Below are positions 7,001-44,489 of a stretch of 44,489 nt of DNA, piece after piece. The stretch covers positions 1-44,489 of the forward strand of contig JAGIQG010000271.1 of NCBI GenBank assembly GCA_024679065.1. Direction: 5' to 3'. The position numbers and the translations under genes were made by a program. Within the stretch, counting starts at the first letter, position 1. Each line of letters opens with the position of its first letter. This DNA is from Sphyrna mokarran. Its lineage: Eukaryota. The notes under the pieces are model-generated. The model searched no databases, was not told the origin of the DNA, and saw only the letters and a list, made by a program, of their open reading frames with translations.

Positions 7001-10000
7001 TGGAAAAAGCTAGCACGAGGGGACACAGTTTTAAATTAAGGGGTGATAGTTATAGGACGGATATCAGAGGTAGGTTCTTTACCCAAAGGGTGGTCGGGAG
7101 TGGAATGCCCTGCCTGCAGCGGTTGTAGATGCGCCAAGTTTGGTGGCGTTTAAGAGGTTAGTTGATAAGTATATGGAAGAGAAGGGAATGGTTTAGTTTG
7201 GAGGGGCATTGCTTTTTATATTGCTCGGCACAACATCGAAGGCCGAAGGGCCTGTTCTGTGCTGTAATGTTCTATGTTCTATGTTCTATGAAATTAACTC
7301 ACCTTCTGACTCCTCAAAACCTGTTCGCCATCTGTAAAGCACAAGTCAGAAGTATGATGGATTACCCCCCACGTGCCTAGTTGGGTGCAACTCCAACAAC
7401 GCGAAAGAAACCTGACATCGTCAAAGGCAAATCAGCCCGCTCGATTGGCAACACATTCACTCCCTCCATCAGCCGATGCTCAGAAGCAGCAGCGCGTACA
7501 CTCACTCAGCAATTCACCAATGATCCTTAGACAGCATCTTTCAAACCTATAACAGTTTCATCCAGAAGGACAAGGACAGCGAATACAAGGGAACACCGCC
7601 ACTGCGTTTCCTTCTACAAGCCACTTAGTATCCCGACTTGGAAACATACTGGCATTCTGTCCCAGTTGCTGGGTCAAAATCCTAGAACTGCATCCCTAAT
7701 GTCATTATGGGTCAACCCACAGCACGTAGACTGCACCCCATCTTTGAAATAGCTATTGAAATACTGTCACTCTATTTAAATTTCCCCCACAGTTTTGCAC
7801 ATTTCTCACTACGAGTCCAAATACAATTCCAGTTGTGAAATGTATTGTAATAGATTCCATTGGCCATGCAGACATTCTCTGAATCACAATACCAAATAGC
7901 ATAAAATAGTCGAAAATGTAATTTATGTGTTGTTTTTCATCTTGATTTTAATGCGATTAGAGTCCAGGTATTAGGAATTTATACGAAAACAGATGCCAAA
8001 CGGAACCTAAAAATTCTGGAGTGTTATTATAGAAAATTGAACTAATACCTCAAGGGAAACTAGAAAAGACAGATTTCGAAAATAGTTAAACATAGAACAT
8101 AGAACATAGAAGAATACAACACAAACAGGCCCTTCAGCCCACGAGTTGCGCTGATCACATCTACCAATCCACAGACCTATCTATAACCCCCTATCCTACT
8201 CTTTTCCATATACTCATCCAGAAGTCTCTTAAAAGACCCCAGTGAGTTTGCCTCAACAGCCTCCGACGGCAGTCGGTTCCATTCACTCACCACCCTCTGA
8301 GTGAAAAACCTACCCCTGACATCTCCTTTGTATTTGCTTCCCTGCACCTTAAATCTGTGTCCTCTCGTAGTGACCATTTCAGCTCGGGGAAATAGTCTCT
8401 GACAGTCCACCCTATCTATTCCTCTCAACATTTCATAAACCTCTATCAGGTCGCCTCTCAACCTCCGTTTCTCCAGTGAGAAGAGTCCCAGCTCCCTCAA
8501 CCTATCTTCATAAGGCCTGCCTCTCAATCCAGGCAGCATCCTTGTAAATCTCCTCTGAACCCTTTCAATAGCCTCTACATCCTTCCTATAATGAGGCGAT
8601 CAGAACTGCGCACAATACTCCAACTGGGGCCTGACAAGAGTCTTATAGAGCTGTATCATTACCTCCTGACTCCTAAATTCTATTCCTCGATTAATGAAGG
8701 CCAGTACACCGTACGCCTACTTGACCACTTCCTCCATCTGCGAGGCCGATTTAAGAGTCCTATGGACCCGGACCCCGACATCCTTCTGCTCTACAACACA
8801 GCTAAGGCTCCTACCCCTTATATTGTATTCCTTCATCCCATTATTCCTGCCAAAATGGGCCACTACACATTTATCTGTATTGAAGTCCAATGCTTCCGTT
8901 TCTCGATTGCAAAGCGCATCCAGTGTTGCACTGACTTCAAATGGGTTGGAAAATCCAATGTCTGAAAAGGACGATGGAAGCAGATTCAATAAAAACTTTC
9001 AGCTGGGAAACGGAGTCTACCTTGAAGGGGAGAAGTGACAGGATTCCAGGTGGCACATTGATTACTATTGCCGCCATATAGTTCCAGAGAACATGGTTTG
9101 ATTCGCGGCTTGATTCACTGTCTGTGCAGGTTGGCACCGTCTCCTGCAGGCGATCTAGTTTCCTCCAACTCTCTGAAGCCATGCTGGTTCGCGGGAATTG
9201 GGCAGACTGAATTTTCTGCAGTGCACTCCAATGGGCGCAGGAGTACGGCGAATAGGCATATTTCACAGCAATTTATTTGTAGCTTTAACGTAAGCATACG
9301 TGTGCCACAAATAAATAATGCAGGTACAATTGGAGATCTCTCTGTGTACGTAACAGACGTCAGTTTCTGAATATTTGGAATATTACTGCAACTGATTACA
9401 AGTTGAATTCAAACCATCATTGTGGAGGTTGACAACTCACCTGAATTGGGGGAGGATACACTTTTCGTCCAATATTTGCCTGGAATCCCCATTTGAACAA
9501 TGCAAGTACAGACACCGCCATTTCTCCAGACTTGCCCCGACACCATGACATGACTTCTGATGCTGTAGGTCCCGTCCTCCCCAGTTATCCCGGGATCACT
9601 CGATCCCTCAGTGACCAAGCCGGAAATATTCCAGAAAACAGCAATCTGCTTGGAAGAAACTCCACTGACCAAACAGACTAAAGGCACATTATCATTCACA
9701 TCCAGATCAGCTGGCGGGACAAATACTTGCACAACCGTCTTGTTGGTGGAACTGTCTGGACAGAAATTGGGACACAGTTAATGATTAATTTACGCACATA
9801 AAAAAAGGATAATGTGCATACTCTGAGTGAATTCACTTTCTCCCTTACCTCCAACCAGGAGTGTGGTTGCATACCGGAACAGTAAAGACCGATCTATGTA
9901 TATATACATACAGTAGTAGGAACCAGAGTCATTCATCTGGACATTGCGAATTTTCAGAATCAACACGTTCCCTGGATCGCCTTTTTCAGAAATAAACTTA

Positions 10001-10770
10001 CAGTCGGGCCCAGTACAGGATGTAGTGGTTATTAGAATCGGGGCTTCACCTAGCCGCTGTTTGTACCAAGCATAGTTGGACACCAAATCCACTTCTTGAG
10101 TGTCATGACAGAATAATTCCACCGTTTGGCCTCTCGCAGCTGTCAATGTGAAAGGGATCTGATACAGAGAGGACTCGGATTCTGTAACTAGAGAGATTAT
10201 TGTGAGATAAGCAATGATTATTGAAATACCAGAAGCTAACTCTAAAAATCAAATCGTCTCGAATGAAAGTTTATTTTATTAATGTCAGAAGTAAGCTTAC
10301 ATTAACACTGCAATGAAGTTACGGCGAAATTCCCCTAACTTCCACACTGCGAGCCTGTCCAGATACACTGAGGGATATTTTTTAGCACCGTCAATGCATC
10401 AACTAGCACCTCTTTTGGACTGTGGGAGCAAACTGGGGCGATCGGAGGAAACCCACGCAGTCTCCACAGTCCACACAAAGCTTTGTGACGCTTTGAGGCA
10501 GCAGTGTTATCCTCTGCATAATCTCCTCATTCATTTAAATCATTGTTTGTCATTTTTTTTCTTAACTTCATGAGTAAAACCAATAAATTAACTTATATGA
10601 TTAGTGCAAATGTCTTCACCCGAACACTGGCTCACTCACGCTTTCAGCTTAGAAAACGCTCATTCGAGTTTATAAAATCGATTCCGCTTGAAATTCCCAC
10701 CCGCCTCTTACTCACAGTGAAACCTCAGTATTTGGAAAATGAGTATCAGAGATAGAGATTCTTCGGCCAT
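947..10770 (-). CDS. Spliced non-rearranging IgSF receptor, L-V(J)-C1-stalk/TM-cytoplasmic (342 aa), join(complement 10716-10770, 9849-10187, 9441-9755, 6500-6601, 6372-6402, 6123-6169, 4520-4569, 947-1036)
   Basis: Manual exon assembly: all introns are GT-AG, phases are 1,1,1,1,2,1,0, and the total is 1029 nt with no internal stop. Protein: [45 protein letters not shown]...WYKQ...DSGSYYC...[25 protein letters not shown]...LVCLVSG...VFWN...GTYSIRSHV...W..GGVCTCIV...[110 protein letters not shown]. Confidence 0.8.
1435..1562 (+). mobile_element. CR1-A 3' terminal fragment
   Basis: aagggaatg...ggccgaagggtctgttctg...(TTCTATG)n. Confidence 0.8.
1840..2135 (+). mobile_element. tRNA-derived SINE (HE1/V-SINE-like)
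   Basis: A/B-box-like head (ggtagcactgct...gggtcgattccc), core gtgtggagtttgcacattctcccc, CR1-like tail gggccgaatggcct. Confidence 0.8.
2570..2826 (-). mobile_element. HE1/V-SINE-like SINE
   Basis: Reverse-complement head cacggtggcacagtggttagtgctactgcc and core. Confidence 0.75.
3485..3800 (+). repeat. Degenerate (CA)/(CT)-rich low-complexity tract
   Basis: Runs of acacacagagacac and tctctctctc. Confidence 0.8.
3820..4120 (-). mobile_element. HE1/V-SINE-like SINE
   Basis: ggagaatgtgcaaacttcacagagacagtgacccaagccg core. Confidence 0.75.
4520..4569 (-). CDS. Cytoplasmic exon (50 nt, [17 protein letters not shown])
   Basis: Acceptor cttcgttacacag|, donor CAG|GTAAGC; phase 1 to 0. Confidence 0.65.
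4845..5460 (+). pseudogene. Decayed CR1 RT fragment
   Basis: HFSKAFD and [12 protein letters not shown]-like remnants. Confidence 0.7.
5718..6052 (-). mobile_element. HE1/V-SINE-like SINE (tail-to-tail with a partial + strand copy at about 5520-5710)
   Basis: ggaggaaaccggagcacc core, tRNA-like head, CATAGAA tail. Confidence 0.8.
6123..6169 (-). CDS. Cytoplasmic exon (47 nt, [16 protein letters not shown])
   Basis: Acceptor agttttag|, donor G|GTAAGT; phase 2 to 1. Confidence 0.72.
6372..6402 (-). CDS. Cytoplasmic micro-exon (31 nt, [10 protein letters not shown])
   Basis: Acceptor tcttgtttcag|, donor AG|GTGAAT; phase 1 to 2 fits the neighbouring exons. Confidence 0.7.
6500..6601 (-). CDS. 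Exon: Cys-containing stalk plus transmembrane helix
   Basis: [34 protein letters not shown]; acceptor ttttctctctatag|, donor G|GTGAGG; phase 1/1. Confidence 0.88.
6760..7735 (+). mobile_element. Older degenerate non-LTR (CR1/L2-group) RT 3' fragment interrupted by the CR1-A copy
   Basis: Flanks join (..ATCCTGAGGAAATT/AACTCACC..) and translate to [12 protein letters not shown]-like RT C-terminal motifs. Confidence 0.6.
6841..7290 (+). mobile_element. 5'-truncated CR1-A copy inside the C1-TM intron
   Basis: ORF2 C-terminus, tail, TSD GAAATT (6835-6840 and 7290-7295). Confidence 0.92.
8088..8890 (-). mobile_element. 5'-truncated CR1 copy, subfamily C
   Basis: ORF 8177..8539 ([26 protein letters not shown]); CATAGAA tail. 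Confidence 0.92.
9441..9755 (-). CDS. Exon: C1-set Ig constant domain
   Basis: [27 protein letters not shown]..CxC motifs; acceptor tttctgtccag|, donor G|GTGAGT; 93-bp intron after the V exon; overlaps ORF 9409..9732. Confidence 0.93.
9849..10187 (-). CDS. Exon: V-set Ig domain including J-like G strand
   Basis: B-strand Cys (ELFC), WYKQ, DSGSYYC and J-like [10 protein letters not shown] in one exon; acceptor tctctctag|, donor G|GTAAGG; overlaps ORF 9790..10146. Confidence 0.93.
10716..10770 (-). CDS. Exon: signal peptide ([18 protein letters not shown])
   Basis: ATG in a good Kozak context (aagATGg), a hydrophobic core, and a phase-1 donor T|GTGAGT typical of IgSF leader exons. Confidence 0.75.
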
Positions 10771-17016: not shown

Positions 17017-17949
17017 TGTAAGTAAAAAGAAAATATTTCACATGTGATTGACATGCTCATTTGAGCAGACGGCTGTATTTCTAAACAATTACATTCAAGA
17101 GTGTAATGTTTCCATTCACAGCCAATATAACTATAAGTAGTTGTGGCAATAAAAAGAATGTGATTGCGATCATGTTATTTAGTAGCTTTTTCAAGCAGCT
17201 CCTAGTATTGTGTTGGCCATGCTTTGGTCACAGAGACCATCGTCCTCCAATTGCAACTGAAGCAATATAATTGCCATCTGGTTCATTTTTAACCTGGACT
17301 AATGCAGAATCCTCCGGTGATATGATCCTTTTGAAAGGACGGGGTGGAGTGTGATTCTTAAGTCAGCTGGTGCCTGGGGACTTTTTTTTTCTTTCGCAGA
17401 GAAGTGCAAGTTTTTACTTTTTTTGTTCAGCAGTATCCTGAGGTGGGAAGCAGTTGCCCTTGCTCTGGAGTTTCAAGTTATGCTGTCTGTGAATTACTGT
17501 TAGCAGCTGATGGAGGCTGGCATGTCCCGGTCCATTTCTCTCTCCAGAGGTGTTTTGGAAATTTCTGGGACTCGGAAGCCTCAGTGATTTAATCCAAAAT
17601 TCAAAGGATCAGTTCACGATAGGAGTTAAACAGCTGAAAACTCAGCACCACGTGAATATGTTTACGGTTGTTCTAAGGCTAGAAAGGGATATGTTGTTTG
17701 AATTGGAACTTCATAGACAGCTGGCTGGTAAAGTCTATTCTATATCATATTCGAATCGTGTAATTGGGAAACGTTATGCAAATTATTTCGATTTAAATTC
17801 AGCCATATTCTAAAATAAACTTTGTTTGATACAAGCTTTCATGTTGGTTCTTTGAATCATACACAGAGTGAAACACCTTATGCTCAACTGTGCCATAGGA
17901 TTTAGTGTACTGAATTGTCATCGCTGTTCGCCACATGTTCCTCCACTGA

Positions 17950-19440
17950 AAGTTTGATGACCTGACCGGCCTCATTAACCATTTATCAGTCCAGTAAATC
18001 ATCCTCTCTAGTAGAGCTATCAACGTGTTGTTCCAAAGAAACTTCCTGGGCACATTTCACAAATTCTTTCTCGTCCAGACCTCCAGTCCTAACGGAATTC
18101 AGTCTGTATGAGGGAAATTAAAGTCTTCCACTGCAACCGCCCTATTTTTTCTACACCTATCCAGAATTTTCTTACGTATCCGTTCCACAACTTTCCGTGG
18201 GCTGTCGGGAGACCTTGTAGTATAACCCCAGAAAAGTGACTGCGTCGTCCCTGGTTCTGAGCTCTACCCAAAGTGTTTCATTACATGATCCTACCAAATT
18301 GTCCACCCTCTGTACCGCTGCAATATACTCCCTAACCAGTATTACTATTCTCCCACCTCTACTATCTCTTCTTCTATCACGCCTAAAGCACTTGTACACG
18401 GAATATTCGGCTGTCAGTCCTGTCCTTCTTTCAAGTTCCTCTCACTGCAACCACATTGAAGTTTACCACCTGTCTTAAAGCTCCAAGTTCATCTGCCTTG
18501 CGCATTCGCTCCTTAATTTAAGCAGATGCACTACAGAACTCCAGGCTGACTGAGTTTATCCTTCCCGAGATTGCTGTTCCTCTTGGGTAGCCTTGACTTG
18601 GCCCCGTGCTCGCCCCCCCCCCCCCCCCCCCCACCCCCGAGTCTCTTCTCTTGCTGACCTGTTCTGATTCCCACCCCATTGCCACATTAGTTTAAATTTA
18701 CTCGAAACACAATAGTAAACCTCCCAGCCAGGATATCGATGCCTCTCCAGTTCAGGTGTAATCCTTCCTTCTTGTACAGGTCCCATCTTCTCTGAAAGAC
18801 ATTCCAGTTATCCACAAATCTGAAACCCTCCTTCCTGCAGCAGTTCTTTATCCATGTGTTCAGCGGCACTATCTCCCTATTCTCAGCCTCACTAGTATTT
18901 GGCACGGGGAACAATCCAGAGATTTCTACACGTGAAGTCTTGTTTTTTAGCCTTTTACCTAAAGCCCTAAATTGTCCTTGCTGGATTTCCCTATTTTCTG
19001 TCTATGTCATTTGTAGCAAGGTAGACAATGACAATGACCCCTTTTAGGGTGCTCTCTACTCGTTCAGAGACAACCAGGATCGTAGCACCAAGGAAACAGT
19101 CGACCATCCTGGAGTCTCGTTCACGCTCACAGAACCACATGTCTCTGCCTCTAACGACTGAGTCCCCCACTACTATGACTCTCATATTCTCCCCCTATTC
19201 CTTCTGACCCATAGAGTCCAACTCGGCACCAGAGACCTGGTCACTAAGACATACCCCTGGAAGGTCATCCTCCCCTGCAGTATCCAAAAAGGTATACTTA
19301 TTTTGGAGAGAATAATCACAAGGGATTCCTGCACTGATTGCCTCCTCTCCTCCGTTCTCCTGACTGTCACACAGCTAGCTTCATTTTTAGGTGTTACCGC
19401 TTCTCAATAACTACTATCCATCACCCGCTCTTCCTCCTGG
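17950..19440 (-). pseudogene. Decayed CR1 5' half (ORF1 esterase + APE fragments), older family
   Basis: ORF fragments VVGDSVVRG, ATNDI, GLHLNWRG..LN* and YKCFRRDR..GG, LWVELR. Confidence 0.85.
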
Positions 19441-19624
19441 ATGCTCTGTGAGCTGATAGTTGTTTAAGATTCGGCTACTCGAGTCTGATGAAACATGAAT
19501 GAAACTCATCGGCAATCGTTCACTTCTCTTCGTAACACCTTCACTTCCTTCCTCCAAGTTATACTATACTTTGAAAAGATGTCCTCCCTCGTGGACAATC
19601 CAGAACGAGAGGCCATATATATAT

Positions 19625-20430
19625 ATAGAACAATACAGCACAAACAGGCCCTTCGGCCCAGGTGTTGCGCCGATCGCATCTACCAATCCACAGACCTATC
19701 TATAATCCCCTATCCTATTCGTTTCCATATACTTATCCAGATGTCTTTTAAAAGGCCCCAGTGAGTTTACCTCAACGTCTCCGACGGCATTCGGTTCCAT
19801 TCACTCACCACCCTCTGAGTGAAAAACCTACCCCTGACATCTCCTTTGTATTTGCTTCCCTGCACCTTAAATCTGTGTCCTCTCGTAGTGACCATTTCAG
19901 CTCGGGGAAATAGTCTCTGACAGTCCACCCTACCTATTCCTCTCAACATTTTATAAACCTCTATCAGGTCGCCTCTCAACCTACGTCTCTCCATTGAGAA
20001 GAGTCCCAGCTCCCTCAACGTATCTTCAAAAGGCCTGCCGCCCAATCCAGGCAGCATCCTTGTAAATCTCCTCTGCACTCTCTACATCCTTCCTATAGTG
20101 AGGCGACCAGAACTGCTCACAATACTCCAAGTGGGGTCTGACACGAGTCTTATAGAGCTGCATCATTACCTCCTGACTCCTAAACTCTATTCTTCGATTA
20201 ATGAAGGCCAGTACACCGTACGCCTTCTTGACCACTTCCTCCACGTGCGAGGCCGATTTAAGAGTCCTATGGACCTGGACCTCGAGATCGTTCTGCTCTA
20301 CAACACAGCTAAGACTCCTACCCCTTAGATTGTACTCCTTCATCCCACTATTCCTGCCAAAATGGACCACTAGTCATTTATCCGTTTTGAAGTTCATCTG
20401 CCACTTCTCCGCCCAGTCTTGCATCCTATC
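19625..20430 (-). mobile_element. 5'-truncated CR1 copy, subfamily C
   Basis: ORFs 20026..20370 and 19767..20078; near-identical to 8088-8890. Confidence 0.92.
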
Positions 20431-20899
20431 TATATATATAGTGGAGTGATAAGTTCAAAACAGCGAGAAAAAGAAACTGCTTCTCTCAGAGGATTGTGAA
20501 TCAGTGGAACCCACTGTCCCGAAGTGCAGTGGAGATAGAATCAGTGAATTCAGTTACACAACATAAATTGACGGTTATTTTTCATTCGATCATTGAATCA
20601 TTGATAGGTCATGAACAAACCTAATCGTCAATTTTCGAATCAAGTTCAGTTCCCATTGGGATCTTACATATCCTGTTTATTTTTGTCTATCAATCCATTT
20701 GATTGATTGAGCATCTACAGTGTCTCTGGGATATAGATAGCAAATAGAATAAAAAATACAGTGATTTAAATTGAGTAAAATTGAGACATCTGCAGTAGCT
20801 ACTGATTAACAGGGACACACATAGAAAAGGGATCCCTTGTAATTTGATAAATTGGTCCACTTTAACAAATGTCACACCTCACTATTCCATAAATTGGGA

Positions 20900-31000: not shown

Positions 31001-31916
31001 ATTTCACGAAGGATGTGAATGCTTTGGAAAGGGTACAGAAGATTTTATTTGGGATGTTGCCCACATTCGAACATGGAAGCTGTAAGTGAGGAGCGGGGGT
31101 GGGGGGGGTGGTGTGGTGGGATGGCTGGAGAAATTGTGTACTTGCACTGGCGAAGGCTGCTGAGAGACTTGATAGAAGTCTATAAAAATTTTGAGACGCT
31201 CACATAGTGTTGACAGCTCGAGTATTTTCCCCAGAGTTGAAATATATAGTTGAGTGCAGGTCACTTAGACATGGAATTTCAATGGCGATGAGAGGTGCAA
31301 GTTTTTTTTTACACAGTGGTATGTGTCTGAAACTCACTGATAGGGTTGGTGGCAGAGGAAAATACGACTGGAGTGTTTATGGAGCTTTTTTTTCGATGAG
31401 AACATCGATATGCACGGAATAGATGGAAGTGGAAGAAGGGAAGACAGAAAAGTTTAGTTTAACTTGGTGTGACGTTCCGCACAACAGCCTGAGCGGAATG
31501 GCCTACATCTGTGTTGCACTTTTTCCATGTTCTAATAAAAACAGTCAGGAATTAAGACTTTACTGATGACCATGAAACCAATCTCGATCGTAATGAAAAC
31601 TCGTTTTGTTTATTAATGCCCTTTAAGGAAGGAAATCTGGCGTCCTGACCTGGAACGCCTGACATACGGCTCCAAATGCGCAGCTTTGTTTCTCAAATGC
31701 CTGTCAAATTGATTATCAAATGCCTTCCAAGAGTAACGAAGGATAGGCTTAAAATACTGGCTAACTAGCGTCGCTCATGTGCTACAATTCAATAAAAATA
31801 AGAGTTCAAAGTTAGCTTATCAAGTCATTAGCAAATTTCTGTTCCAAAGATGTTGTATTGGAAAGTCTATTATTGAGTACAGAAGTACAAACGTCACTGC
31901 CGTTCCAAATATGCTT

Positions 31917-32123
31917 CATAGAACATAGAACATAGAACATTACAGCACAGAACAGGCCCTTCGGCCTTTGATGTTGTGCCGACCAAAATAAAAAGCAATG
32001 CCCCTCCAACTAAAACATTCCCTTCTCTTCCATATACTTATAATTAACCTCTTAAACGCCCCAAACTTGGCGGCATCTCAACTGCGCAGGCAGGGTCATT
32101 TCCACTCCCTAATCACTCTTTGA
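31917..32123 (-). mobile_element. 3' part of an antisense CR1-A copy split by the full-length element
   Basis: (CATAGAA)n tail and 3' UTR, ending at aatcactctttga. Confidence 0.9.
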
Positions 32124-33630
32124 TTGTTCCATTGGAGCAGCACGGAGAGGCAGCGATTTGGGAGAGCGAGAAGTTCGATTGATAAGTAGCTTTTTAACTT
32201 TTCTCTTTGTTTAAAACAGCGAGCGGGAGTAGTTTTTGCCGTTTTTATTTTAAACTAACTTGTAACCGGAAGTCGTCACTAGGAGGCTGCCGGTAGTTGT
32301 AGTTTTTAAGCTATATAAGTACTAACCTCTGGGTATCGGCCTCATTGTTCCATTGGAGCAGCACGGAGAGGCAGCGATTTGGGAGAGCGAGAAGTTCGAT
32401 TGATAAGTAGCTTTTTAACTTTTCTCTTTGTTTAAAACAGCGAGCGGGAGTAGTTTTTGCCGTTTTTATTTTAAACTAACTTGTAACCGGAAGTCGTCAC
32501 TAGGAGGCTGCCGGTAGTTGTAGTTTTTAAGCTATATAAGTACTAACCTCTGGGTATCGGCCTCATTGTTCCATTGGAGCAGCACGGAGAGGCAGCGATT
32601 TGGGAGAGCGAGAAGTTCGATTGATAAGTAGCTTTTTAACTTTTCTCTTTGTTTAAAACAGCGAGCGGGAGTAGTTTTTGCCGTTTTTATTTTAAACTAA
32701 CTTGTAACCGGAAGTCGTCACTAGGAGGCTGCCGGTAGTTGTAGTTTTTAAGCTATATAAGTACTAACCTCTGGGTATCGGCCTCATTGTTCCATTGGAG
32801 CAGCACGGAGAGGCAGCGATTTGGGAGAGCGAGAAGTTCGATTGATAAGTAGCTTTTTAACTTTTCTCTTTGTTTAAAACAGCGAGCGGGAGTAGTTTTT
32901 GCCGTTTTTATTTAAACTAACTTGTAACCGGAAGTCGTCACTAGGAGGCTGCCGGTAGTTGTAGTTTTTAAGCTATATAAGTACTAACCTCTGGGTATCG
33001 GCCTCATTGTTCCATTGGAGCAGCACGGAGAGGCAGCGATTTGGGAGAGCGAGAAGTTCGATTGATAAGTAGCTTTTTAACTTTTCTCTTTGTTTAAAAC
33101 AGCGAGCGGGAGTAGTTTTTGCCGTTTTTATTTAAACTAACTTGTAACCGGAAGTCGTCACTAGGAGGCTGCCGGTAGTTGTAGTTTTTAAGCTATATAA
33201 GTACTAACCTCTGGGTATCGGCCTCATTGTTCCATTGGAGCAGCACGGAGAGGCAGCGATTTGGGAGAGCGAGAAGTTCGATTGATAAGTAGCTTTTTAA
33301 CTTTTCTCTTTGTTTAAAACAGCGAGCGGGAGTAGTTTTTGCCGTTTTTATTTTAAACTAACTTGTAACCGGAAGTCGTCACTAGGAGGCTGCCGGTAGT
33401 TGTAGTTTTTAAGCTATATAAGTACTAACCTCTGGGTATCGGCCTCATTGTTCCATTGGAGCAGCACGGAGAGGCAGCGATTTGGGAGAGCGAGAAGTTC
33501 GATTGATAAGTAGCTTTTTAACTTTTCTCTTTGTTTAAAACAGCGAGCGGGAGTAGTTTTTGCCGTTTTTATTTTAAACTAACTTGTAACCGGAAGTCGT
33601 CACTAGGAGGCTGCCGGTAGTTGTAGTTTT
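32123..33630 (+). repeat. Tandem array of about 6.8 near-identical 220-221-bp monomers in the CR1 5' UTR
   Basis: Units start ATTGTTCCATTGG at 32123, 32344, 32565, 32786, 33006, 33226 and 33447; by eye they differ only in one T-run length. Confidence 0.97.
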
Positions 33631-33775
33631 TCTCTCTGACTCTATAAATTCTTACAGAGAGGTAACCCGATACTCTACACAGGTAGAGTATCCCACCCTC
33701 CCCCCTCCTCTAACCTAATAATAATAGTGTGTGTGTAGGTTTTTTTTTTCTCTCCTGCAAATTAAAGTAACAGTG

Positions 33776-34699
33776 ATGGCAGTGCAGGTAGTACATTGCA
33801 CCTCCTGCGGTATGTATGAGGTAAGGGACACCAGTGGTGTTCCTGCTGATTATACCTGCAGGAAGTGTGCACATTTGCAGCTCCTTGAGGATCGTGTTAA
33901 GGAGCTGGAGCTGGAATTAGAGGAGCTCAGAGTAATTCGAGAGGTTGAGGAGGATATAGGCAGGAGTAACAAAGAGATTGTAACTCCTATAAGTGATAAT
34001 TGGGTAACTATTAGGAGGAGGGGTAAGAAGCAATCGGGGAGACAATCCCCTGGGGCTGTTCCCCTCCAAAATAAATTTTCTGTCTTGGAGGCTACAGTTG
34101 AGGAAGAATCAACTGGAGCTGACCAAAGGGAGCAGGTCTCTGGGGGTGAGACTGCTGAGAATGCTCAGGTGGGTGGGGGGAATAAGAGATTAGGCCTAGT
34201 TATAGGAGACTCCATAGTTAGAGGGACAGATAGGAGGGTAAATAGTAATAAACAGGACTCAGGGCTGGTGTGTTGCCTCCCAGGGGCTGGGGTCCAGGAT
34301 GTTGCAGATCGGGTTTTTAGGATTCTTAAGGGTGAGGGGAGTCAGCCCCAAGTCATTGTTCATGTGGGGACACATGATGTAGGTAGGACAAGGGAAGGGG
34401 ATATTAAACAGAAATTTATGGAGTTAGGGTGGAAGCTTAGGTCCATAACAGGCAGAGTGGTTATCTCTGGACTCTTGCCTGTGCCAAGGGATAGTTTAGA
34501 GATGAACAGAGAAAGGGATAGTTTGAACTCATGGCTGCGTGGATGGTGCAGGAGGGAGGGGTTCAGGTTCCTTAACAATTGGGACTCATTCTGGGATAGG
34601 TGGGACCTCTTCAAGAGAGATGGTCTACACCTGAACCAGAGGGGGACTAATATCTTGGGGGGAAAATTTGCTAAGGCTATGATGGGGGCTTTAAACTGA
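33776..34699 (+). CDS. CR1 ORF1p: CxxC...CxxC zinc finger + coiled coil + SGNH/GDSL esterase domain (307 aa from first ATG)
   Basis: CTSC/CRKC; LLEDRVKELELELEEL; GDSIVRG, VHVGTHD and DGLHLN blocks; ends ALN*. Confidence 0.93.
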   Translation: MAVQVVHCTSCGMYEVRDTSGVPADYTCRKCAHLQLLEDRVKELELELEELRVIREVEEDIGRSNKEIVTPISDNWVTIRRRGKKQSGRQSPGAVPLQNKFSVLEATVEEESTGADQREQVSGGETAENAQVGGGNKRLGLVIGDSIVRGTDRRVNSNKQDSGLVCCLPGAGVQDVADRVFRILKGEGSQPQVIVHVGTHDVGRTREGDIKQKFMELGWKLRSITGRVVISGLLPVPRDSLEMNRERDSLNSWLRGWCRREGFRFLNNWDSFWDRWDLFKRDGLHLNQRGTNILGGKFAKAMMGALN

Positions 34700-37582
34700 T
34701 TCGGGGGGGGGGTGGGATCCTAAGTAGTTGGGGTGCTGAGAGGGATGAGAGTAAGGGGGTTATAGAAGAGAGTTGTAAAACACAGCGGCGTACGGGTGGG
34801 GTGGGGCATGGTTTGAAATGCGTATACTTTAATGCAAGGAGTATTCGCAATAAGGGGGAGGAACTTGCAGCTTGGACCAGTACCTGGAACTTCGATGTTG
34901 TGGCCATTTCAGAGACTTGGGTAGAGCAGGGACAGGAATGGATGTTGCAGGTTCCGGGGTACAAATGCTTTAGTCGGAGTAGAGAAGGAGGTAGAAGGGG
35001 GGGAGGAGTGGCGTTATTGGTCAAAGACTGTATCACGGTGATAGAAAAGAAGTTTGATGAGGACTTGTCTGTTGAGGTAGTATGGGCTGAGATTAGAAAC
35101 AGGAGAGGAGAGGTCACCCTGTTGGGAGTCTTTTACAGACCTCCTAATAGTTCTAGAGAGGTTGAGGAAAGGATTGCGAAGTCAATTCTGATTAGGAGTG
35201 AAAGTAGTAGGGTAATTGTGATGGGGGACTTTAACTTTGCTAATATTGATTGGAATAGCTATAGCTCTAGCTCGTTAGAGGGGTCAGTTTTCGTACAGAG
35301 TGTGCAGGAAGGTTTTTTGACTCAGTATGTAGATAGGCCAACTAGAGGTGAGGCTACATTGGATTTGGTGCTGGGCAATGAGCCAGACCAGGTGTTAGGC
35401 TTGGAAGTTAGTGAACATTTTGGTGATAGTGACCACAATTCGGTTACGTTCACCTTAGTGATGGACAGGGATAGGCATGAAGCTGGGGGCTGTAGTTATA
35501 GCTGGGGGAAGGGTAATTATGAGGCCATCAGGAGAGAATTAGGGTGCGTAGATTGGACTAGGGAACTACAGGGACTGGGAACATCTGGAATGTGGTGCTT
35601 ATTCAAGGAGCAGCTGCTGAGAGTCCTTGATAAGTATGTCCCTGTCAGGCAGGGAGGAAATGGTACGAGTAAGAGAGCCTTGGTGTACGAAAAGAGTTGA
35701 TTTGCTGGTTAAGAAGAAAAAGGAGGCTTATGTCAGGATGAGGCTTGAAGGCTCAGGTAGTGCAATGGATAGCTATAGATTAGCTAGGAAGGAGGTAAAA
35801 AGTGAATTGAGGAGAGCTAAGAGGGGACACGAGAAGATGTTGGCTGATAGGATTAAGGAGAATCCTAAAGCTTTCTTTCGATATGTTAAGAATAGAAGAT
35901 TGGTTAGGGCAAGATTAGGGCCAGTCATAGATAGCAGTGGGAAGTTGTGCGTGGAGCCTGAAGAGATTGGCGAGGCACTGAATAAATATTTCTCTTCGGT
36001 ATTCACGCAGAGTGCTGGAAATGTAGCTGTGGAGAGCACTGAGGTACAGGGTTGCAAATTGGGGAGTATTGTAGTAGATAGGGAGGATGTGTTAGAAATT
36101 CTCGAGGGTTTGAAGTTGGATAAGTCCCCTGGGCCGGACGGGATTTACCCTAGGATTCTCTGGGAGGCAAGAGAGGAGATTGCAGAGCCTCTGGCTCTGA
36201 TCTTCAGGTCCTCGTTGGTTACGGGTGTGGTTCCGGAGGACTGGAGGATGGCGAATGTGGTCCCATTGTTTAAGAAGGGGAAGAGAGACCTTCCTGGGAA
36301 TTATAGGCCAGTGAGTCTTACTTCTGTTGTGGGCAAGGTATTGGAGAGAATTATTAGGGATAGGATTTATAGTTATTTAGAGAGAAATGAATTGATTGGG
36401 GATAGTCAGCATGGTTTCGTGAAGGGTAGGTCATGCCTTACTAACCTCATTGAGTTTTTTGAGAAAGTGACCAGAGAGGTGGATGGGGGTAAGGCGGTTG
36501 ATGTAGTATATATGGACTTTAGTAAGGCTTTTGATAAGGTGGCCCATGGAAGACTTCTACAGAAAATGCAGATGTGTGGAATAGAGGGTGATTTAGCTAA
36601 TTGGATTAGAAATTGGCTGGCAGATAGAAGACAGAGGGTGGTGGTTGATGGGAGATATTCATCGTGGAGTTCGGTGACGAGTGGTGTGCCTCAGGGGTCT
36701 GTTTTGGGGCCCCTGCTGTTTGTAATTTTTATAAATGATCTGGATGAGGGTATTGAGGGATGGATCAGTAAATTTGCAGATGATACTAAAGTTGGTGGAG
36801 TGGTAGATAGTGAAGAGGGGTGTTTTAGTTTACAGAGTGACTTGGACAAGTTGCAGAGCTGGGCCGAGAGGTGGCAAATGGAGTTTAATGTGGAAAAGTG
36901 TGAGGTAATGCACTTTGGCAGGAACAATAAATGTGTAGAGTATAGGGCTAATGGTAGGGCTCTTAATAGTGTTGAGGAACAGAAGGATCTTGGTGTATGT
37001 GTCAATAGATCCCTGAAAGTAGGCAGTCAAGTGGATAAAGTTGTTAAGAAGGCATATGGAGTCTTAGCTTTTATTGGTAGGGGGATTGAATTTAGGAGCC
37101 GCAGCATCATGTTGCAACTGTACAAAACTCTAGTGCGGCCGCACTTGGAGTATTGTGTGCAGTTCTGGTGCCCACATTATAAGAAAGATGTGGAGGCATT
37201 GGAGAGGGTACAGAGGAGGTTTACCAGGATGTTGCCTGGTATGGAGGGCAGGTCTTATGAAGAGAGGTTGAAGGATTTGAGGTTGTTTTCGTTAGAAAGG
37301 AGGCGGCTAAGAGGGGATCTTATTGAAACATATAAGATGATTAGAGGTTTAGATAGGGTGGACAGTGATAGCCTTTTTCCTAGGATGGAGAAAGCTAGCA
37401 CGAGGGGACACAGCTTTAAATTAAGGGGTATGAGTTATAGGACGGATATCAGAGGTAGGTTCTTTACTCAAAGAGTGATTAGGGAGTGGAATGCCCTGCC
37501 TGCAGCTGTTGTAGATGCGCCAAGTTTGGTGGCGTTTAAGAGGTTAGTTGATAAGTATATGGATAGGAAGGGAATGGTTTAG
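34690..37582 (+). CDS. CR1 ORF2p: APE endonuclease + reverse transcriptase, with one extra base (frameshift) near 35665
   Basis: NARS, ETW, GDFN, LDL and SDH (APE) in ORF 34801..35700; QHGF, DFSKAFD, GVPQGSVLGP and FADD (RT) in ORF 35627..37582. Confidence 0.93.
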
Positions 37583-37678
37583 TTAGGAGGGGCATTGCTT
37601 TTTATTTTGGTCGGCACAACATCGAAGGCCGAAGGGCCTGTTCTGTGCTGTATTGTTCTATGTTTCTATGTTCTATGT

Positions 37679-38137
37679 TCTTTGAGTAAAGAACCTACCT
37701 CTGATATCCGTCCTATAACTCATACCCCTTAATTTAAAGCTGTGTCCCCTCGTGCTAGCTTTCTCCATCCTAGGAAAAAGGCTATCACTGTCCACCCTAT
37801 CTAAACCTCTAATCATCTTATATGCTTCAATAAGATCCCCTCTTAGCCGCCTCCTTTCTAACGAAAACAACCTCAAATCCTTCAACCTCTCTTCATAGGA
37901 CCTGCCCTCCATACCAGGCAACCTCCTGGTAAACCTCCTCTGTACCCTCTCCAATGCCTCCACATCTTTCTTATAATGTGGCGACCAGAACTGCACACAA
38001 TACTCCAAGTGCGGCCGCACTAGAGTTTTGTAAAGCTGCAACATGATGCTGCGGCTCCTAAATTCAATCCCCCTACCAATAAAAGCTAAGACTCCATATG
38101 CCTTCTTAACAACTTTATCCACTTGACTGCCTACTTT
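37679..38137 (-). mobile_element. 5' part of the same split antisense CR1-A copy
   Basis: Resumes exactly at tctttgagtaaagaacc; ORF 37673..38122 encodes the ORF2 C-terminus. Confidence 0.92.
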
Positions 38138-42832: not shown

Positions 42833-44489
42833 GAACATAGAACATAGAACATAGAACAATACAGCACAGAACAGGCCCTTCGGCCTTCGATGTTGTGCCG
42901 ACCAAAATAAAAGCAATGCCCCTCCTAACTAAACCATTCCCTTCTCTTCCATATACTTATCAACTAACCTCTTAAACGCCACCAAACTTGGCGCATCTAC
43001 AACAGCTGCAGGCAGAGCATTCCACTCCCTAATCACTCTTTGAGTAAAGAACTACCTCTGATATCCGTCCTATAACTCATACCCCTTAATTTAAAGCTGT
43101 GTCCCCTCGTGCTAGCTTTCTCCATCCTAGGAAAAAGGCTATCACTGTCCACCCTATCTAACCTCTAATCATCTTATATGCTTCAATAAGATCCCCTCTT
43201 AGCCGCCTCCTTTCTAACGAAAACAACCTCAAATCCTTCAACCTCTCGTCATAGGACCTGCCCTCCATACCAGGCAACATCCTGGTAAACCTCCTCTGTA
43301 CCCTCTCCAATGCCTCCACATCTTTCTTATAATGTGGCGACCAGAACTGCACACAATACTCCAAGTGCGGCCGCACTAGAGTTGTGTACAGCTGCAACAT
43401 GATGCTGCGGCTCCTAAATTCAATCCCCCTACCAATAAAAGCTAAGACTCCATAAGCCTTCTTAACAACTTTATCCACTTGACTGCCTACTTTCAGGGAT
43501 CTATTGACCCATACGCCAAGATCCTTCTGTTCCTCAACACTATTAAGAGCCCTACCATTAGCCCTATACTCTACACATTTATTGTTCCTGCCAAAGTGCA
43601 TTACCTCACACTTTTCCACATTAAACTCCATTTGCCACATCTCGGCCCAGCTCTGCAACTTGTCCAAGTCACTCTGTAAACTATAACACCCCTCTTCACT
43701 ATCTACCACTCCACCGACTTTAGTGTCATCTGCAAATTTACTGATCCATCCCTCAATACCCTCATCCAGATCATTTATAAAAATTACAAACAGCAGGGGC
43801 CCCAAAACAGACCCCTGAGGCACACCACTTGTCACCCAACTCCACGATGAATATCTCCCATCAACCACCACCCTCTGTCTTCTATCTGCCAGCCCATTTC
43901 TAATCCAATTAGCTAAATCACCCTCTATTCCACACATCTGCATTTTCTGTAGAAGTCTTCCATGGGCCACCTTATCAAACGCCTTACTAAAGTCCATATA
44001 TACGACATCAACCGCCTTACCCCCATCCACCTCTCTGGTCACTTTCTCAAAAAACTCAATGAGGTTAGTAAGGCATGACCTACCCTTCACGAAACCATGC
44101 TGACTATCCCCAATCAATTCATTTCTCTCTAAATAACAATAAATCCTATCCCTAATAATCCTCTCCAATACCTTGCCCACAACAGAAGTAAGACTCACTG
44201 GCCTATAATTCCCTGGAAGGTCTCTCTTCCCCTTCTTAAACAATGGGACCAGATTCGCTATCCTCCAGTCCTCCGGAACCACACCCGTAACCAACGAGGG
44301 CCTGAAGATCAGAGCCAGAGGCTCTGCAATCTCCTCTCTTGCCTCCCAGAGAATCCTAGGGTAAATCCCGTCCGGCCCCGGGGACTTATCCAACTTCAAA
44401 CCCTCGAGAATTTCTAACACATCCTCCCTATCTACTACAATACTTCCCAATTTGCAACCCTGTACCTCAGTGCTCTCCATAGCTACATT
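42833..44489 (-). mobile_element. CR1-A copy (RT region to 3' tail), running off the window end
   Basis: ORF 43158..44480 is nearly identical to the ORF2 at 35627..37582; (CATAGAA)n tail at about 42833. Confidence 0.95.

Follow-up and report, generated by a model that had tools for sequence, protein, structure and literature searches.

The element and its insertion site

The window analysed here, a 44,489-nt stretch of shark DNA, contains a full-length CR1 LINE at 32123-37681 on the plus strand, which consists of a 5' array of tandem units, a tether, ORF1, ORF2 and a 3' UTR (Table 1). In Pfam, ORF2 matches Exo_endo_phos (E 1.7e-20) and RVT_1 (E 2.4e-37), with no further family and no RNase H, and ORF1 matches Lipase_GDSL_2, as an esterase-type protein would. 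A profile made from the ORF1 alignment (A1) also matches the 'ORF1-encoded protein' of PDB 4c1b (E 4e-35), a zebrafish LINE esterase. Among the named relatives of ORF1, those from sharks, rays and skates come first (38-64% identity), and turtle and fish proteins follow. For the reverse transcriptase, the named top matches are bird, turtle and elasmobranch proteins at 40-71%, and these matches are not labelled CR1; the LINEs of birds are CR1 elements. A 7-bp 3' tail, a microsatellite and not poly(A), is present in 6/6 aligned fragments of the family. Judged by its sequence, the element is a CR1 LINE, in agreement with the first-pass annotation: the APE-RT ORF2, the esterase ORF1, the CR1-like reverse transcriptase relatives, the microsatellite tail and the short target site duplication (TSD) all uphold this identity.

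In the GTND motif of the ORF1 esterase, H is found where N is usual, and the same holds for the closest relatives P0001 and P0003. CR1-like proteins also appear in public records under bacterial names (P0010, P0079 and P0126), and LINE-like ORF1 matches lie on MAG contigs (L001-L003); both are likely to be host contamination. A GTDB scan with the ORF1 alignment returned 3 loci at 25-27% identity. TRF showed no array of monomers in L001 or L002; L003 is 531 bp long.

Table 1 Features of the CR1 element and of its insertion site, in window coordinates
Feature	Position	Strand	Remarks
Left TSD, TCTTTG	32117..32122	+	Empty site rebuilt from both flanks; the A at 32123 may belong to the TSD
Right TSD	37679..37684	+	From flank comparison
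Six complete monomers, predicted promoter units	32123..33446	+	221, 221, 221, 220, 220 and 221 bp
Seventh, partial monomer, 185 bp	33447..33631	+	ETS and half-CRE kept; stops 4 nt short of the TATA position
ETS site and adjacent half-CRE, unit 1	32265..32278	+	From about -79 to -66 relative to the start of the next unit; in all 7 units
TATA box TATATAAG, unit 1	32312..32319	+	Others at 32533, 32754, 32974, 33194 and 33415; each at -32
Initiator spanning the unit junction	32341..32346	+	Predicted
Predicted start sites	32344, 32565, 32786, 33006, 33226, 33447	+	From the initiator register
Non-repeated tether, 144 bp	33632..33775	+	TATAAAT at 33643, hairpin 33669-33692, pyrimidine tract ending CCTCTAACC, no ATG
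ORF1, 307 aa, intact	33776..34699	+	Cys-pair zinc-finger-like motif, leucine-zipper-like stretch, SGNH/GDSL esterase
ORF2 (APE endonuclease and reverse transcriptase)	34810..37582	+	Two frames, one frameshift near 35661-35665
3' UTR with 7-bp microsatellite tail at its end	37583..37681	+	3-nt microhomology to the target
Target copy, 3' part	31917..32122	-	5'-truncated copy of the same CR1 family; unusually many 1-bp indels
Target copy, 5' part	37679..38137	-	98.5% identical to the element; no indels

The element was inserted antisense into another member of its family that is 5'-truncated (31917-32122 and 37679-38137), and the rebuilt empty site is colinear with the 3' region of this family. 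Because the target copy is colinear across the insertion, a TSD of 6-7 bp and the 5' end of the element are fixed. The base that follows TCTTTG, an A, is common to the flank and to the first base of the element, so that the CR1 5' end lies at 32123 or 32124. The sister fragments in the window fall into two sets, B, C, D and D2 at 1.5-2.5% divergence from the element and E and F at 4-6.5%, which indicates that the family is young. If the frameshift in ORF2 is real, this copy is unable to mobilise itself. About nine one-base indels fall within 200 bp of 31917-32122 and none in the other half of the target, reflecting either assembly noise or damage associated with the junction.

Nested CR1s are frequent in the window. 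A second copy of the family, 97.8% identical, occupies 42833-44489 (-) and runs off the window end. An older CR1 of another family (17900-19450, -) retains remnants of ORF1 and of the endonuclease, having lost its ORF1 start and 5' UTR, and is adjoined by a younger, 5'-truncated CR1 that lies in a TA run (19617-20433, -). At 9409-10248 (-) we also observed an Ig V-set exon next to a C1-set exon, the former seeming to end in a J-like motif without rearrangement; this is possibly an antigen-receptor-like gene, with one relative only, at 63%.

The monomer array

The array covers 1509 bp (32123-33631), with units starting at 32123, 32344, 32565, 32786, 33006, 33226 and 33447. The first description, of about 6.8 near-identical units of 220-221 bp, is accurate: there are six complete units and a 185-bp partial one, with 0 substitutions and a single 1-bp deletion in a T run, common to units 4 and 5. 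The architecture can be written as A(BA)6-tether, with A denoting 185 bp and B the 36-bp segment that holds TATATAAG. The seventh unit ends 4 nt before its TATA box, and a different TATA-like box comes next.

The monomers are of the ~200-bp class, CpG-rich and tandem, and form the 5' end together with a tether. Their CpG observed/expected ratio is 1.15, compared to 0.13 in ORF1 and 0.13-0.41 across the ORFs. Complete monomers carry neither a sense ATG nor a sense AATAAA, the lack of ATG giving P 0.005 against mononucleotide shuffles and P 0.24 against dinucleotide shuffles, and the array contains no long ORF (maximum 54 codons). The unit folds no better than its shuffles (z -1.3); the last unit with the tether gives z -2.5. 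A search of Rfam with 31800-33900 (E up to 5) returned 0 matches, so that no known ribozyme or small-RNA origin is indicated. Plasmid and phage collections gave no match, and the 12 longer ORF1 relatives show no sign of translated tandem 5' repeats.

Within the 44,489-nt window there is no other copy of the array, and the unit has no match outside it, flank and 3' UTR included. The 36-bp TATA segment B is likewise confined to the array: the rest of the window, with the flank and the 3' UTR, has no copy of it. As the TATA segment is absent from the flank, it came with the element, and at least 1.8 units were therefore inserted: the tandem structure was inherited at insertion. This result speaks against a neutral minisatellite that expanded in place after a one- or two-unit insertion, with a unit number that has no role in the life cycle. 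Such an expansion would fit the difference between the array, with 0 substitutions in 1509 bp, and the body, where 1338 bp hold about 5 private events (Fisher P 0.02). It would also fit the indel common to the adjacent units 4 and 5, which is compatible with recent homogenisation in place. The last unit is also as identical as the others, with 0 substitutions where 2.8-3.7 differences are expected at family divergence (P0 0.03-0.06). However, the insertion may be younger than 3 of these private changes, which are synonymous; with the remainder only, P0 is 0.06-0.24 and thus unremarkable. Moreover, tandem 5' units are present in the consensuses of many families (PMC13343379, in the rows seen), and in-place expansion would at most explain the copy number and not the register described below. 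We consider it improbable as the origin of the array. The adjacent variant units 4 and 5 and the identity of the last unit make us lean weakly towards homogenisation at the DNA level, although polishing would look alike.

Array length and unit identity could also derive from collapsed or expanded repeats, or from polishing to the family consensus. The 200 bp to the left of the array show ~4.5 gaps per 100 bp versus sister copies, compared to 0-0.7 in the other half of the target, and this left flank is an outlier among all repeat pairs in the window. The sole unit variant lies in a homopolymer, and the ORF2 frameshift could be an error too. With such local noise at base level beside the array, unit identity and copy number are less certain. 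Nevertheless, the two junctions are exact, as is the TSD, the insertion leaves the target copy colinear, and 1.5 kb is short for long reads. Similar arrays are also found in published consensuses from the assemblies of other species, at least in the rows seen. An assembly or polishing artefact is very improbable.

TATA/initiator register

To describe the register, the unit was treated as circular, a spacing of 28-34 nt was taken as TATA-compatible, and 20,000 dinucleotide shuffles were used for comparison. The ETS, half-CRE and initiator motifs are named and defined in the usual way, the initiator being BBCABW with A as +1. Every junction presents, in this order, ETS (-78), half-CRE (-70), TATATAAG (-32) and initiator (+1). 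The box TATATAAG starts exactly 32 nt ahead of the next unit in 6/6 complete units, just as had been claimed, and CCGGAAGT, the ETS site, is found at -78 in 6/6 complete units and again in the partial one. The junction CTC-ATT fits the BBCABW initiator with A as +1. The circular unit has 221 positions, of which 7 are TATA-compatible and 3 carry an initiator A; position 1 alone belongs to both groups. The insertion begins at position 1 (+/-1), the sole position that combines TATA spacing and an initiator. The proposal that the 5' end of the insertion falls at the predicted start site is therefore borne out.

Shuffled units contain a strict TATA box in 1.7% of cases, a correctly spaced pair of TATA and initiator in 0.09%, CCGGAAGT in 0.7% and CCAAT/ATTGG in 18.6%. 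Elsewhere in the window, a spaced initiator accompanies 2/33 strict TATA boxes. The first-pass annotation had assigned both an ETS site and a reverse CCAAT box (ATTGG) to each unit. The former is present in all 7 units and above chance (0.2-0.7% of shuffles); the latter is at chance level, and the fuller NF-Y consensus is absent. CCAAT was accordingly rejected as a promoter element on the basis of its frequency in shuffles. A Pol III promoter was set aside on inspection, given the T runs within the unit and the lack of a good match to the PSE.

The arrangement suggests that starts set by TATA boxes very probably occur at the unit boundaries; the register evidence comes from one genomic copy of this array. 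The main rival is an internal promoter with an optional booster, which we consider unlikely. In that case the first 185 bp (initiator and downstream ETS/CRE) would start transcription at their own +1 anywhere, TATA would sharpen or strengthen these internal starts, and the array would amplify output and buffer 5' truncation, with no obligatory loss of units. An internal promoter would likewise place the 5' end at unit +1. Internal promoters are the rule among characterised LINEs (PMC2881922, PMC1636488, PMC2377424), and single mouse monomers retain some activity (PMC9022269). Furthermore, the ray consensuses HypSab_CR1-5, -6a, -17 and -18, in the rows seen, have one unit-like segment followed by a tether, and an ETS motif at the very 5' end of lizard L1 (PMC5381506) implies that ETS here could act from downstream.

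On the other hand, the unit contains no YY1 site (neither CCATNTT nor AANATGGC, on either strand), no DPE (+28) and no E-box (CANNTG, the type present in bird and turtle CR1 5' UTRs), and is thus devoid of a recognised internal core element. E-boxes are not required for CR1, since they are also absent from chicken CR1-F according to the accessible text of PMC2734521. The initiator spans the junction, so that an inserted first unit loses bases -3 to -1; here, the flank has no TATA upstream and a G at -1, meaning that the first unit has lost its upstream context. An internal promoter would need neither a perfect TATA at -32 nor the same register in unrelated families, and the one-unit consensuses are equally predicted, for most daughters, if units are lost at each cycle.

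Published CR1-group consensus 5' ends

We surveyed the vertebrate CR1-group consensuses of Supplementary Table 2 of PMC13343379, using the first 400 nt of each. The survey was carried out by eye on 8/46 table parts and on searched rows and was not blind; the ends of the consensuses are fuzzy, and units of greater length would be missed. It yielded 94 elasmobranch CR1 rows, of which ~60 extend beyond ORF1 on its 5' side. In 11 rows a 5' tandem repeat is clear, and these correspond by eye to 8 unrelated unit types; most of the ~60 in this sample show no tandem repeat in their first 400 nt.

By eye, 3/8 of these elasmobranch unit types have a TATA 28-35 nt upstream of the point where the consensus start is repeated: HypSab_CR1-12 (168-bp unit, TATA at -29), ScyCan_CR1-11b (289-bp unit, TATA at -34) and RhiTyp_CR1-2a from the whale shark (~100-bp unit, TATA at -32). 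The array of HypSab_CR1-12 ends in a different TATA segment, like the tether here, and the homologues of RhiTyp_CR1-2a (-7 and -11/-8) present TATA or TTTAAAA 32 nt before the initiator A. If each unit has one TATA and ends are random, at least 3 of 8 unit types in register would be expected with P ~0.015. The register was not seen by eye in the other five (ScyCan-6, -7a/b, -19, SquAca-7 and LeuEri-1), where a TATA-like box is found at another offset in 3 and none was seen in 2. Outside the count of 8, lungfish ProAnn_CR1-2 (~-28) and lizard HemCap_L2-1a/1b (~-33) show by eye the same register. As regards the position of the 5' end in the monomer, this copy fits unit +1 and 3/8 other unit types fit by eye. 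Since the monomers are unrelated and the register is the same, these rows, as far as they were covered, provide independent support for it, and we conclude that the TATA/initiator register is probably recurrent in the CR1 group.

In several of these shark CR1s, a splice-donor-like motif and its reverse complement (GGTAAG/GTGAG ... CTTACC/CTCAC) flank the TATA-like box. Such flanks were seen in ScyCan_CR1-6, -16 and -19, CarCar_CR1-14 and RhiTyp_CR1-2a and -7, and are not clear in the unit of the window.

Tether and region downstream of the array

The tether has its own TATA-like box (TATAAAT, 33643-33649) and a perfect 10-bp hairpin (33669-33692). Being located downstream of the ETS/CRE of the last unit, this box could start a short-leader RNA that is itself promoterless. 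Among the rows seen, SquAca_CR1-7 and ScyCan_CR1-11a have a TATA-like box in the corresponding position, and so does HypSab_CR1-12 after its array. The TATA segment and the first part of the tether show no significant homology (P 0.15).

A composite motif at 33664-33720 comprises AACCCGA, the hairpin and a C/T tract ending CCTCTAACC, and lies ~55-110 nt 5' of the ORF1 ATG. By eye, it recurs in 7 shark CR1 consensuses of the PMC13343379 supplement, behind unrelated 5' segments, and the hairpin stems of these 7 show apparent compensatory (covarying) changes. Its presence behind unrelated segments suggests that 5' units have been swapped with the tether kept, and the motif is a candidate structured RNA element.

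Proposed mechanism

Based on these observations, we propose that the array is the promoter of the element and repeats, head to tail, an ordinary RNA polymerase II promoter of the upstream type. Transcription would start at base 1 of unit k+1, driven by the ETS, half-CRE and TATA (at -32) with which unit k ends, and the resulting RNA would retain every downstream unit as an ATG-free leader and drop the unit that fired. After target-primed reverse transcription, the daughter would begin at a unit start with at least one unit fewer, and its own first unit would drive only the second. If the six TATA boxes were used equally, the mean loss would be 3.5 units per cycle. Genomic copies would regain units through unequal exchange or slippage, or units would be re-duplicated by in-register template switching in reverse transcription, or both; it is through this re-duplication that the lineage would persist, as it would otherwise end within six cycles. 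Each of the two routes has a parallel among the proposals made for mouse L1 (PMC6454616). We assign a probability of roughly 0.65 to this whole loss-and-regrowth cycle of external TATA monomers, in which start sites, obligatory loss and regrowth are what we infer. A TART-like jump to a 3' UTR repeat was rejected, because the unit has no copy in the 3' UTR.

Comparison with known systems

The closest likeness is to mouse L1Md (A, Gf and Tf), which, according to PMC6454616, PMC9022269 and PMC7778262, has ~200-bp CpG-rich tandem monomers in variable number, a tether to ORF1, and 5' ends that cluster at the start site within the monomer. Two monomers are required for significant activity of Tf L1 (PMC9022269), and for regrowth, second-strand priming and unequal crossing-over are the alternatives proposed in PMC6454616, which also places such repeats near the 5' end of L1 in mouse only. 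The idea that monomers preserve a promoter despite truncation is credited to Loeb et al. 1986 in PMC7778262. The mouse system differs from ours in several respects. Its starts are broad (30-40 nt) and tied to YY1/AP-1 sites, whereas the unit in the window has no YY1 match; the word TATA is absent from the accessible text of PMC6454616 and PMC9022269, whereas the shark unit has a TATA box; and its monomers vary by array position, whereas the 7 units here are identical save one base. In addition, mouse L1 has L1-clade ORFs, and the element in the window an esterase ORF1 and a CR1-like reverse transcriptase. The array thus appears to work like mouse L1 monomers in a different family, and to be built from an external TATA promoter.

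Within the CR1 group, some ORF1-less LINEs have 1-5 species-specific subunits, each 100-500 bp long and repeated close to the 5' UTR (Stuart et al. 2026, PMC13343379, Fig. 4 legend; also in a preprint). These are stated for ORF1-less elements only in the parts seen, whereas our element has an intact ORF1 of 307 aa; the 221-bp unit falls within the 100-500 bp range, and its 6.8 copies exceed the 1-5 reported. The accessible parts of that paper give no promoter reading of the subunits, and the main text is without 'promot', 'tandem' or 'monomer'. Bird, turtle and pufferfish CR1 are of the same clade, with 5' UTRs that vary between subfamilies, and 32-bp direct repeats are found in the turtle and pufferfish 5' UTRs (PMC2734521); what the sections seen of that paper describe is a ~240-bp UTR, E-boxes (chicken) and short repeats, with no monomer array or TATA.

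Other retroelements share parts of the design. In Drosophila HeT-A the promoter lies upstream of the transcribed copy and comes from a tandem neighbour, and for TART a template jump to a repeat has been proposed to rebuild the 5' sequence upstream of the start (PMC1636488). Both are confined to telomeres and carry the promoter or repeat in their 3' UTR, whereas our element has a dedicated 5' array and no 3' UTR copy. In Penelope, a partial-tandem pseudo-LTR arrangement supplies the transcription unit and needs regeneration; it differs in being of another retroelement class, with an internal TATA-less promoter with a DPE and a repeat from the element's 3' end (PMC2377424).

In the full-text literature we found no description of TATA/initiator-phased CR1 monomers, a scope that excludes most subscription papers, Repbase/Dfam notes, Zenodo consensuses and the supplement figures of PMC13343379. 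The first-pass annotation knew of no such array in CR1, and this stands for the TATA/initiator register within the texts searched; it does not stand for repeats as such, as 5' repeating subunits are in print (PMC13343379). Its idea of a 'sacrificial' array likewise agrees with the register and the 5' end, but the concept is not new, modular monomers and two models of regrowth being old for mouse L1 (PMC6454616, PMC7778262).

Significance

The design is known in concept from mouse L1 monomers, and the part for which we found no precedent is the TATA/initiator register in CR1. With a start site of a single base and identical units, loss and gain per cycle are countable, which makes the question of array regrowth directly testable here. 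It is a doubtful extension of our model that the CR1-group LINEs of sharks, rays, lungfish and lizards repeatedly captured external TATA promoters as expendable monomers, with the reverse transcriptase itself rebuilding the arrays by in-register template switching, which in a non-LTR element would serve the same function as LTR regeneration.

In most vertebrates, CR1-group elements dominate among the LINEs; to our knowledge, their promoters have barely been studied and are assumed to be internal. In shark and ray genomes these elements make up 22-34% of the sequence (PMC13343379). If the CR1 group runs on tandem external TATA promoters, the lifespan of a lineage would be set by its count of promoter units, and each full-length insertion would drop a string of strong, directional promoters into the genome.
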